A stretch of 64,000 nt of DNA from Octopus vulgaris (Eukaryota): positions 31,682,001 through 31,746,000 of the forward strand of contig OX597832.1 in NCBI GenBank assembly GCA_951406725.2, read 5' to 3'. Under the pieces are notes generated by a model. That model made no database searches and had not been told where the DNA came from. It was given only the letters and a program-made list of their open reading frames with translations. The position numbers and the translations under genes are program-made. Of this stretch, positions 4,161 through 63,589 are shown one piece after another (the first letter of the stretch is position 1; each line of letters opens with the position of its first letter).

Positions 4161-4291
4161 GTCTGTCCGTCCGTCTGTCCGTCTGTCCGTCTGTCTCCTT
4201 ATCTCTCTCTCTCTGTTTGTCTACCCATCTGTGTATCTATTGGTCTCTCTATCTCGCGAGTTATCTATCAATATGTATGTATATGTATATT

Positions 4292-19199: not shown

Positions 19200-19253
<54 letters not shown>

Positions 19254-19258
<5 letters not shown>

Positions 19259-20117
19259 TATATAATTAGGGCTTAGTAAAATAAATTACTTTGCCACATA
19301 CTGAACTAAGTAGAAATAGCAGCCAAAAAAAATTTTTTTAGCCATTTCCACTACTTAAAGAAAATTTCTCTCAGATAATGTTTACTCCAGACAGCTCACG
19401 AAGGTTTGGAGGTAAATACAGAAAAATATCACAAGTACATAGATCGTTTGAGTACGTCAACGTTTCAAGAGTACGTCAACAATTCGCCTTAAATGGTCCT
19501 TTTACATACTGAACACTTGGTGAAATTGATTAATCAATTTTATCCTCAATTGTTGATATTATAATTCATTTCTCTCTATCATACTGCCTTGGTTCTCGCG
19601 GTTAAAATATAATGTTTGCTAGATAGACCACGTGGGTGGAAAAGGAGTGCAGAAATTTACGCCTGCGCATTTTGAATTTGTTGGCACTTCAGTTGGAGCT
19701 GGTTCATTTGAAGCGACAAGTTCGCCGAGAGGTAAAGTTCCTTCTTTTTAGTGTTTCCAAATCCAAATTAAGAAATTTTGAGCTGACGAAAGAAATGCTG
19801 ATTTTATTTGGCTAATCTTGAAACGTTGACGTACTCAAACGATCTATGTACTTGATATTTTTCTGTATTTACCTCCAAACCTTCGTGAGCTGTCTGGAGT
19901 AAACATTATCTGAGAGAAATTTTCTTTAAGTAGTGGAAATGGCTAAAAAAATTTTTTTGGGCTGCTATTTCTACTTAGTTCAGTATGTGGCAAAGTAATT
20001 TATTTTACTAAGCCCTAATTATATAATGTAATATTTTGAATTCGCCTTAAATGGTCCTATTACATACTGAACACTTGGTGAAATTGATTAATTAATTTTA
20101 CCCTCAATTGTTGATAT
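19254..20117 (+). mobile_element. Penelope-like/retrozyme element family H3: inverted arm + 558-bp unit + 79-bp terminal redundancy, in (TA)n
   Basis: 19254-19470 is a near-perfect inverted copy of 19816-20030; 19481-19559 is directly repeated at 20039-20117; hammerhead at 19777-19839. Confidence 0.85.
19777..19839 (+). ncRNA. Type I hammerhead ribozyme, canonical core
   Basis: TTTGAG-CTGACGA-AAGA-(22 nt)-TCTT-GAAA-CGT-TG-ACG-TA-CTCAAA; 6-bp helix I, GUA triplet. Confidence 0.85.
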
Positions 20118-20205
20118 ATATATATATATATACACATATATACCCATACAAATATATTACCTAAATATATGTTTGAGTATACATACAAACATACATACAC
20201 ACGTA

Positions 20206-20288
20206 CCCAAGGTTCCGCGCTGTGGGACTGAACCCGGAATCATGTGGTTGGGAAGCAGCTTCTTACCACACAGCCACTCCTGCACCTA
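20206..20288 (-). mobile_element. SINE family B head fragment
   Basis: Minus strand GGTGCAGGAGTGGCTGTGTGGTAAGAAGCTGCTTCCCAACCACATGATTCCGGGTTCAGTCCCA. Confidence 0.8.
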
Positions 20289-47167: not shown

Positions 47168-48485
47168 AAGCATTTTTTCTTCATGATCTCTGACAACTAT
47201 ATCTGGCATATTGGCCTTAATTTCTCTATCTGTGTGTATTGGCATAGCTTCCAGTGTATGTAGGTCCCAACTCTACCGTGTCTGTGAGTATATTCCTTCT
47301 TAGCCAGGACTGGGCAGCTAGAGATAATATGATTTATTGTTTCTTGTCCATCTCCACATATTCCGCAGTTACTTGTTATATTTCCTTTCATTACATGTTT
47401 TTGGTAATTTCTGGTGGGGAGGCTTTGGTCTTGTGCTGCAATTAAAAATCCCTCCGTCTCTGATTTGAGTCCTGAGCTTCTCAACCATTGCTGGGATTTT
47501 TCTTTGTCTATTTCTTTTGCGTTTAGTTTAGTGCAGTATTTACCATGAAGGGGCTTTTCTTGCCATCGTTTTATCATGGTCCGTTGCTTTATCATGGTCC
47601 GTTTTAGTTTGGTTTTCAATTGTTTTATAGCTTTTGCTTCTTCTTCTTCTTCTTCTTCTTCTTCTTCTTCTTCTTCTTCTTCTTCTTCTTCTTCTTCTTC
47701 TTCTTCTTCTTCTTCTTCTTCTTCTTCTTCTTCTTCTTCTTCTTCTTCATATTTGTTCGGTAGTATGATTTCTTGTTTGTATTTGTCAGATTCCTTAAAT
47801 ACTGAGAACAGTTTTTTTTTATTTTGCTCGTGTTTTTGCCGCTATTTGTATAAGATTTCCTTCCTTCTGAAGTAGGTATTTTTGCAGTCTTATGGTAGTT
47901 ATTTTATAATAGTTTTCCAGCAGTATCAGGCCTCTACCACCTTCTATACGTTGTATATATAGCCTTTCTATGTCAGATTTTGGGTGATGCATCCTAGATT
48001 CTGTCATTATTTTTCTTGTTTTCTTGTCTATTTTGGTTGGTTCATTTAGTGTCCAGTCAAGGATATTGTAGTTGTAACTTATAACCGAGACGGCTAAAGT
48101 GTTAATACCTATTATCTTGTTTTTAGCATTGAGCTCTGTTTTTAGTATTGATCTAACTCGTCTATAGTATTCTTTCTTTATTTTCTCTTTCATTTGTGTG
48201 TGTTGTGTCTTATCTAGTTCATGGATTCCTAAATATTTGTATGTTTGGCTTTGGTCTAATTCTCTTATTTCATTGGGCTTATCTAATGTAATGTTACTAC
48301 TCTTAACTGGTTTTACTCTTTTCAGAGTTGCTTTGGCACATTTTTCTAATCCAAATGTCATATCTATTTGTTTGGTAAATCCATGAACTGTCTTTAATAG
48401 TGTTTCCAGCTGTTTATCATTTGCAGCGTATAGTTTTAAGTCATCCATACATAAAAGGCGGATGATTGTCTTGTTTTGCCGTAAC

Positions 48486-48487
<2 letters not shown>
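47168..48487 (-). mobile_element. Dong/R4-like non-LTR retrotransposon fragment (RT C-terminal half, CCHC knuckle, start of REL endonuclease)
   Basis: LLCMDDLKLY, FGLEKCA, YKYLGI, HHPKSDIERLYIQRIEGGRGL, KPLHGKY, ETEGFLIAAQDQSLPT, CGICGDGQETINHIISSC, HRH; frameshifted. Confidence 0.92.
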
Positions 48488-49490
<1,003 letters not shown>

Positions 49491-57166: not shown

Positions 57167-57250
57167 TTCGATAGCCGGATAACTGAAGAGATGGCGACGA
57201 GGGTTTACGTCCCAACATCCGAAACTCGGAGTTTTATCATGGCTACCGAA
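57167..57250 (+). ncRNA. Type I hammerhead ribozyme with extended helices I and II (family H4)
   Basis: TTCG.TAGCC.GATAA-CTGAAGA-GATG..GACG..CGTC..CATC-C-GAAA-CTC-G-GAG-TT-TTATC..GGCTA.CGAA. Confidence 0.8.
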
Positions 57251-62168: not shown

Positions 62169-62196
62169 TGTATGTATGTATATATATATATATATT

Positions 62197-62549
62197 TCAA
62201 CAATTGAGGGTAAAATTAATTAATTAATCAATTTCACCAAGTATTCAGTATGCAAAGGGACCATTTAAGGCGAATTCAAATTATTACATTATATAAAAGG
62301 GCTTAGTAAAATAAATAAAGAAGTGTCGATTTTGACTAATCTTGAAACGTACGTTCTCAAATAACCTTTGCATTTGATTTATTAATGTTTCTACCCTCAT
62401 ACTTTCGTGAGTTGAGTTGAGCAAACACTATATGAGAGAGATTTTCTTTAAGTATTGGAAATAGTTTTTAAAAAGTTTTTTTAGCTGCTATTTCTAATGA
62501 GTTCAGTATGCGGCAAAGTAATTTATTTTACTAAGCCCTTTTATATAAT
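62197..62549. mobile_element. Second family H3 element with internal inversion and a 5'-truncated hammerhead, in (TA)n
   Basis: 62197-62316 is the reverse complement of about 19996-20113; 62317-62549 is homologous to 19789-20027; half ribozyme at 62317-62361. Confidence 0.85.
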
Positions 62550-63589
62550 ATATATATATATATATATATAATATATGTATATACAGCATATATATGTATT
62601 TACACACACACTCACACACATATATATATACACTCACTTTCATCCATATATACAGGTGTAAACATACATGTAATACATTATCCTGTAAGTCGTTGCTAAA
62701 CACATCTCATTTGCATATATGTAAATTTTGCCTCCATGTATGCATGCGTTTGCACCTATACATACGTTTATTCATTCATGCATACATACATAGATGAGTG
62801 CGTATGCATGTGTATGCGTGTATGTATGTACGTTCGTGTGTATGTGTTTTTATAAGCATACATACGTGTAAGTCTATATACACATGCATGTATACACACG
62901 TCAAATAATCGTCACTTGTTTTATCGATGAGTTCCATCTCCGTTTGCTGCATCCGTGTTTGTTCGAGTATTTTGTTTGTTTGGTTATTTGTTGAGTTCTG
63001 TACGATATACGACATGGAATCTCACAGCAAACAAACTGCCGAATGCGTACATATAAATACATATATGTATATATGTACTTGTATATATATAAATCTGTAT
63101 ACACATACACACACAGGCACACACACACGCATATGTACGTGTATATATTTACTGTATAGAGATGCAGTGATATACTAATATGCATACACACGCACACAAT
63201 ATACACAGACACATAGACACACGCACAAATACGTAAACATATATATATATAGTACGTTATATTTTTTTAGACATTTCTTTTCCCGTATACAGAAGCATAA
63301 AGTATGTATGTATGTATGTATATATGTCCGTTTGTATGTTCGTATGAATCTATATAGGCATCTTATATCTATATGTGTGTGTGTATGATTATATGTATGC
63401 ATGTATATTTATTCAAATTCGGATTTCGCATACACTCATGCATGCGCGAACACACACGCACATATAACATATATATGAAACAGACAATTCTACGCACACA
63501 CGATTCCTTCCAAACAAGAGAGGACACTACCAACATCTCTTCTTGCAGTGATATAAAAACTGAAGAGAAAGACCTAGCCATCCTCCTCA

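Follow-up and report, generated by a model that had tools for sequence, protein, structure and literature searches.

The insertions of the 558-nt repeat described here were probably made by a Penelope-like element (PLE) reverse transcriptase (RT)/endonuclease that primes both strands of its target on one RNA, most likely a ligated circle; judging from the footprints left in the DNA, we give this reading a probability of about two in three. The copy at the centre of the analysis lies in the window, the whole stretch of 64,000 nucleotides that was analysed, and its sequence identifies it as a single insertion of a repeat that is young, non-coding and present in many copies and that carries a canonical type I hammerhead. 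At the sequence level the unit has the features of a metazoan non-LTR retrozyme, namely a type I hammerhead in each unit, dispersed short tandem units, no coding capacity, a GC content below 50% and a monomer predicted to pair with itself, and we assign it to that class of animal elements with high confidence. It also has features of PLEs, a partial tandem with an inverted 5'-truncated arm and a tail at one end bounded by two start sites, and is likely mobilised in trans by a PLE RT/GIY-YIG protein. As a genomic parasite the element falls in a known class; its value lies in the insertion footprint and in the two-primer, one-RNA model.

The 558-nt unit and its families

The window copy consists of a B arm of 217 nt and an A arm of 637 nt, A and B being the two classes of outer end described below, and lies between (TA)n microsatellite sequence on the left (19202-19253) and right (20118-20132) flanks of the target. 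The direct A arm (19481-20117, plus strand) amounts to 1.14 units and has its outer end at start site A. It comprises one non-coding unit of 558 nt and 34% GC (19481-20038, plus strand) followed by a 79-nt direct repeat, such that 19481-19559 recurs at 20039-20117 with 76/79 positions identical. Aligned in reverse complement with 19816-20030, the inverted B arm (19254-19470, minus strand) differs by a single mismatch and an indel of 2 nt; its outer (3') end falls, by alignment and end class, at start site B (unit position ~550). This arm is 5'-truncated at the first base of the helix II 3' strand and contains just half a ribozyme. The word GAGTACGTCAAC is present twice, at 19450-19461 and 19469-19480, the second (plus strand) being a templated 12-nt duplication at the arm joint, which we attribute to slip-back on a GA microhomology and which implies two readings of the template over the cut site. 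The original prediction for this locus had claimed the 558-period direct repeat, one canonical hammerhead per unit, the inverted arm breaking in helix II and the 12-nt junction duplication, and all of these are borne out. Since the window copy holds one whole ribozyme, it is probably no source of circles itself.

The canonical type I hammerhead (19777-19839, plus strand) has a helix I of 6 bp, the CUGACGA core, a helix II of 4 bp, GAAA and a GUA triplet, with a predicted cut after 19833; its helix III is short with a palindromic top, the form that PMC4209133 describes as 'canonical' for metazoans. A stricter motif scan of the window found this motif alone. An Rfam scan left the hammerhead unscored and returned 8 weak unrelated matches at E<=10, with microsatellite-driven miRNA matches only. 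The isolated motif is not predicted to fold into an active monomer (z -0.46), and the palindromic helix III is predicted to pair with a second copy at -12.8 kcal/mol. The 3' ribozyme core is identical in 105/113 passes of family A, the family of the window copy. Core and helices are kept across families, with both-sided (compensatory) changes at 7/13 pairs in a set of 5 sequences from 3 families in which the changes are mostly one contrast, A/B against C.

No open reading frame was found in the unit, the longest stop-free frame being 62 aa and the longest ATG frame 23 aa. In the phase 19560-20117 the predicted fold has a minimum free energy of -149 kcal/mol (z -5.86), and 0/100 shuffles were as good. 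By sequence comparison, a 3' domain (19925-20117, plus strand) is kept in families A, B, C, D and F; its predicted helices enclose site B and precede site A, and this domain is likely the RT-loading signal. In its consensus fold 5/31 pairs change on both sides and the covariation term is unfavourable (+0.67), values that come from 8 rows, one of them badly windowed, and serve as a hint only. Upstream of the ribozyme a CACG(T/C)GG-like word, with a TTTGAATTT word after it, stands at 19629-19640 and at the corresponding positions in families B, C, D and F; the two are possibly, as a guess, an internal promoter. The unit is covered by contigs from four runs that are guessed to be RNA, the shared 3' domain far more deeply, as DNA or passive read-through would also give; among the sequencing runs listed as containing the unit, none is recorded as RNA.

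The repeat occurs in the genome far above chance. A search of the 2.8-Gb genome with the unit gave 1,645 first-look candidates, and among the best 40 that were scored many are full-length at 94-98%; the loci lie on many contigs. By unit part, the candidates, whose numbers are not copy numbers, rise from 537 (5' of the ribozyme) through 1,177 (ribozyme) to 1,446 (3' part), a gradient typical of 5' truncation. From 120 fetched loci, merged to 72, we obtained a non-random sample made up of the best-scoring copies for four queries. Family A has 76 insertions in this sample, 45 inverted and 31 single-armed, with arms of ~50 to 2,000 nt. Unit follows unit along an arm for as much as 2,026 nt, with no open reading frame. 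More than one unit is present in 44/109 arms, with a maximum of 3.6 units, so that the tandem arrays of about 558-bp period that the original prediction proposed to look for do exist.

Four sister families, B, C, D and F, have units of ~555-600 nt and the 3' domain in common with the window unit, each with its own hammerhead-like motif, and their longer copies likewise run unit into unit. The family B unit is 557 nt long and matches the window unit at 77%; the periods of families D and F are ~600 and ~555. A separate short family B insertion, at 77-81% to the window unit, lies in (TA)n at 62194-62557 with an A arm and a B arm, and has a GUU triplet and the ACGTACGT palindrome in helix III. Another family B copy (L131 3674-8108; G000:C6, about 99.796-99.800 Mb) has 4 units in each inverted arm (2,235 + 2,196 nt), ~99% identical.

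Other repeats were seen in the window. A short interspersed repeat that also flanks many of the loci follows the element (20205-20285); a second, widespread repeat (57178-57238) resembles a hammerhead weakly, under loose rules only. Broken non-LTR retrotransposon-like frames, split by microsatellites, lie at 47197-49487 on the minus strand.

Two fixed outer ends and scattered inner ends

The difference between outer ends A and B is the most informative feature of these insertions. With unit position 1 at 19481, outer ends lie at A (unit ~79) or at B (unit ~543-554), ~87 nt apart on the RNA, and (TA)n stands directly beyond 107/113 of them. From the family end positions, start site A maps in the window to 20114-20117 (plus strand; …TTGTTGATAT followed by (AT)n) and start site B to 20023-20034 (plus strand; TATATAAT/GTAATAT, 10-19 nt behind CCCT), and the stretch from B to A, by family end classes, to 20031-20117 (plus strand). 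At site A 41/58 ends are identical over 26 nt; at site B 19 fall between ...TATAAT and the ATATA that follows, the remainder within ~11 nt.

The two ends are paired. The 45 inverted insertions of family A divide into 38 AB, a single AA, no BB and 6 in which one end is of another kind; a strict recount gave 33 AB, 4 with A and a B extended by <=~10 nt, 1 AA and 7 other. In single-arm copies A and B are about equally frequent (13 A, 11 B, 2 extended B, 3 other), so that independent choice predicts about half AB; the observed 38/39 departs from this at p=1.5e-10. Family B (17/18 inverted copies AB) and family C (40/45) have no AA or BB copy either, counts that are partly query-biased because some queries were themselves AB-shaped, and from which 5 edge-cut family B loci were dropped. 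The segmental duplicates L173 and L246 were dropped from the divergence, haplotype, breakpoint and strict end counts.

The A/B difference is the tail signature of PLEs, present at one end only, at ~87 nt two to three times longer than the 30-40 nt published for PLEs. Together with the (TA)n target, the partial tandems and the inverted 5'-truncated arms, it upholds the earlier claim of Penelope-type insertion. As the target is (TA)n, target-site duplications are unreadable. Circularly permuted starts, also anticipated, were not seen at the outer ends; these occupy two fixed sites, and scatter is confined to the inner (5') ends.

The inner ends were compared with a uniform null in the query-biased sample, the window copy left out. 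The ribozyme contains 9/107 breaks where 12.1 are expected and its helix II 4 where 5.8 are expected, and 2 breaks, against an expectation of 1.7, lie no more than 4 nt from the cut; 11/107 5'-ends at unit 175-200 form a hot spot that is non-significant by the scan statistic (p=0.68). The 40 two-arm junctions comprise 25 with overlaps of 1-6 nt, 3 with more, 3 blunt and 9 with inserts, which occur at many positions and several of which copy nearby sequence. Inner ends are thus not drawn to the ribozyme, and the helix II break and 12-nt duplication of the window copy are ordinary end-joining; the template switching at the ribozyme that had been proposed for it finds no support in the family.

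A probable single RNA template per insertion

Divergence is lowest between tandem passes (0.9%), higher between arms (1.3%) and highest between loci (2.6%). For minor alleles at 22 diagnostic sites, arms of one insertion agree in 81/88 comparisons and tandem passes in 87/98, against 5,042/36,576 (14%) between loci. The single AA copy, L177, has the most discordant arms and accounts for 3 of the 7 discordant sites, as expected of two separate RNAs. In 13 loci, 11 locus-private and 12 rare alleles are present in all tandem passes of an arm, which suggests, from the sequences, a monomer bottleneck. In multi-pass insertions, 63/64 variable sites are limited to one pass.

The cleavage site is crossed ungapped and without scar in 113/113 passes. 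Such a monomer, read repeatedly and continuous at its cut site, is most simply a ligated circle; the earlier claim of a tandem or circular RNA template accords with this continuity. A arms extend beyond site B in 50/54 cases, so that the two cDNAs overlap on the unit. An A>G bias, as an RNA-editing footprint, was unsupported in family A: template-level changes comprise 8 A>G and 6 T>C, those limited to a single pass 7 and 11 respectively (Fisher p=0.48; spectrum without L213, L013 and L024).

A template of another kind, a linear multimer transcribed from a homogeneous tandem donor and left uncut, could be copied by the same PLE two-site priming, the ribozyme then being a passenger or an RNA trimmer. 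Uncleaved RNA is the dominant substrate of PAc in vitro (PMC11167929), arrays of 3.6-4 units exist as possible donors, and an uncut template would be just as scarless at the cut site. Two loci point the same way or towards exchange between RNAs: adjacent units of L011 differ in haplotype at 4 sites and L131 has one variant in three inner passes, patterns that a mixed multimer or a switch between RNAs fits better than one circle. However, the 13 loci in which new alleles are fixed across all tandem passes require that a monomer existed at some stage, a difference between passes hardly ever has its counterpart in the other arm, and across families compensatory changes preserve the core and helices of the ribozyme. 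We therefore consider the linear multimer unlikely, though it deserves to be kept in mind. Tandems might instead be built from cleaved linear monomers joined by precise RT jumps from 5' end to 3' end, with no circle, which would also yield homogeneous passes and an occasional change of haplotype as in L011; with no excess of 5'-ends at the cut (2/107) and no indel scar at any of the 113 passes, this is improbable. The ligated circle remains our preferred template.

Candidate enzyme, proposed mechanism and relation to known systems

The genome contains young intact PLEs with an RT plus, at the C-terminus, a GIY-YIG domain, in frames of 781 aa and 775 aa. A CxxC motif before GIY-YIG, the criterion given in PMC8557442, suggests that they belong to the Neptune clade. 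Both families carry hammerhead variants, and their ends lie in (TA)n. Of 30 ends in the 775-aa family, 18 are without a tail of ~33 nt, 11 extend through it and 1 goes on in tandem; of the three inverted insertions seen two are A+B and one is B+B (L261/L262), so that strict A/B pairing is not universal. Tails of Neptune-type families measure ~33-40 nt, against ~87 for the window unit. DNA and profile comparisons with the fetched PLE loci revealed no sequence in common between the unit and the young Neptune-type PLEs. The GIY-YIG family search and the distant-PLE-protein search, in which the families reached were of Neptune type, yielded no autonomous partner.

Further hammerheads and PLE remnants were observed at these loci. 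The hammerhead-like motif of the 781-aa family (L121 4880-4922; L042 2665-2707) has the core pair U3:A8 (UUGAUAA) and an ACAUGU palindrome, and a UUGAUAA-type U3:A8 core of the same kind is found in family F (L318, about 1360-1420). The 775-aa family, very young with near-identical intact frames and a tandem period of 4,271 bp, has a CCGAAGA-core variant (L258, about 4240-4285 in ORF orientation). Long-helix-II hammerheads of unrelated families adjoin PLE copies (L039 127-212 and 451-536; L038 39-123; L034 626-697). A family F copy is inserted into a divergent C-rich PLE family (L339 10-561, oriented; L308 2076-2380), which is ~28% to Neptune-type proteins and whose 3' part is long and CT-rich. 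Short foldback remnants from the 3' end of another PLE adjoin retrozyme copies (L226, about 1660-2300; L310, about 400-920), and (TA)n tracts gather nested PLE-type insertions.

Could the unit be just the pseudo-LTR of a long coding PLE, and the copies its 5'-truncated ends? PLE pseudo-LTRs bear hammerheads and tails (PMC4209133, PMC8557442), frog retrozymes resemble pseudo-LTRs (10.64898/2026.07.22.740005), and the search for a coding partner was non-exhaustive. Against this, arms run unit into unit over up to 2,026 nt with no ORF, the longest stop-free frame of the unit is 62 aa, and tblastn of 8 PLE proteins against 270 family loci matched 8 loci, in each case a separate neighbouring insertion. 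The case of a unit that always forms the LTR-like end of a long coding element, raised with the original prediction, thus finds no example, the unit being joined to a PLE frame in 0/270 loci; for the copies examined the idea is largely refuted and we hold it very improbable. The unit is not itself an autonomous PLE, as it has no RT + GIY-YIG frame. Taken alone, the window copy resembles a core between inverted repeats of 215 bp, which a foldback or MITE-like DNA transposon with terminal repeats of that kind, or a local rearrangement of the DNA, could leave; we dismiss this reading as barely credible since fixed-length matching inverted repeats are absent, arms vary from ~50 to 2,000 nt around scattered inner breaks, 31 insertions are single-armed, the ends, fixed at two sites, differ by the tail, and candidates fall with distance from the 3' end.

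Returning to two-site priming on one circle, we propose the following course. By analogy with known retrozymes, a tandem copy would be transcribed and its paired hammerheads would release a monomer that is ligated to a circle. The PLE protein would bind the structured 3' domain and, as PAc biochemistry suggests, nick both strands of the (TA)n target seen around the copies. One DNA end would prime at A and the other at B, the positions at which ends are observed, through AU-rich microhomology to the TA primer. Both RTs would circle the template in the same direction, presumably displacing each other, over the observed overlap and lengths of up to 3.6-4 units. The unfinished cDNAs would be joined via microhomology or a short templated insert, of the kinds present at the junctions, to give head-to-head arms; loss of one arm would leave single-arm copies. 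More tentatively, and at somewhat less than even odds, circular ribozyme RNAs (~555-600 nt) with a conserved loading domain may seat a Penelope RT dimer at two fixed sites separated by 87-100 nt, leading to chasing rolling-circle reverse transcription of one circle from both strands of one (TA)n cut.

How retrozymes return to DNA and how the tandem, inverted and tailed insertions of PLEs originate are stated as open questions in the sources consulted (PMC8557442, PMC7229834, 10.64898/2026.07.22.740005). If true, the more tentative reading with a loading domain and chasing rolling-circle copying would account at one stroke for the tandems, the inversions and the one-sided tails of PLEs, and the ribozyme RNAs may parasitise PLE protein without shared primary sequence. 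The unit is a small, young, polymorphic non-coding substrate with mapped starts, which makes the model testable in the existing in vitro PLE assay.

In L1 twin priming, too, both target strands prime on one RNA and an inversion results. There each of the two cDNAs is copied from its own part of a linear RNA and the position of the second site is variable, whereas in the present insertions that site is fixed and the cDNAs overlap (50/54).

Parts of the present model have been put forward before. Circle-templated, more-than-unit copying by PLE RT was proposed in 2014 (PMC4209133), and circle-templated tandem cDNA with PLE mobilisation was proposed for retrozymes by Cervera and de la Pena (2020; PMC7229834); PLE mobilisation is also proposed in 10.64898/2026.07.22.740005. 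Circle-templated PLE copying is thus already known as a proposal and two RT start sites from in vitro work, while counts of end pairing and arm haplotypes for a retrozyme were not found in the literature searched; supplements or Repbase may list the unit already. The metazoan non-LTR retrozymes of PMC7229834 are alike in their tandem units, which are non-coding, low in GC and each provided with one canonical type I hammerhead, in a highly self-paired RNA and in coexisting PLEs. Their units measure 170-400 nt, against 558 nt for the window unit; the text consulted from that source makes no mention of 'inverted' or 'microsatellite', whereas inverted arms, (TA)n and two fixed ends dominate here. 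Li, Clavereau and Pollet (2026; 10.64898/2026.07.22.740005) treat the same class with the same proposed PLE parent, and 558 falls within their range of 51-972 bp. Their case is built on co-occurrence and pseudo-LTR homology in vertebrates and favours local tandem expansion, whereas here the insertion anatomy is PLE-like and a homologous pseudo-LTR was not found; they also report that 8/9 frog retrozyme dimers did not cleave in vitro, which counts against our model.

Among PLEs, the non-autonomous Chlamys elements such as MRC1 (PMC8557442) are likewise non-coding PLE passengers with head-to-tail copies, but they match their autonomous partner at the 3' end, in a clade without canonical hammerheads, whereas the window unit has no partner match. 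For PLEs a tail at one end of insertions, 30-40 nt long, is described by Craig et al. (2021; PMC8557442), and Frangieh et al. (2024; PMC11167929) report that in vitro the PAc RT starts at two internal sites bounding the tail and extends both strands, that insertion is independent of ribozyme cleavage and that the start site is the same for both strands; the two start sites favour our model and the last two results count against it. The EN+ PLEs of these two sources resemble the present insertions in their partial tandems, inverted 5'-truncated arm and one-end tail, in two RT start sites downstream of the hammerhead, and in AT-rich or (TA)n targets. The unit differs from them in having no ORF, a tail of ~87 rather than 30-40 nt and a canonical instead of a minimal hammerhead, and in the near-strict A/B pairing and common arm haplotype that are counted here.
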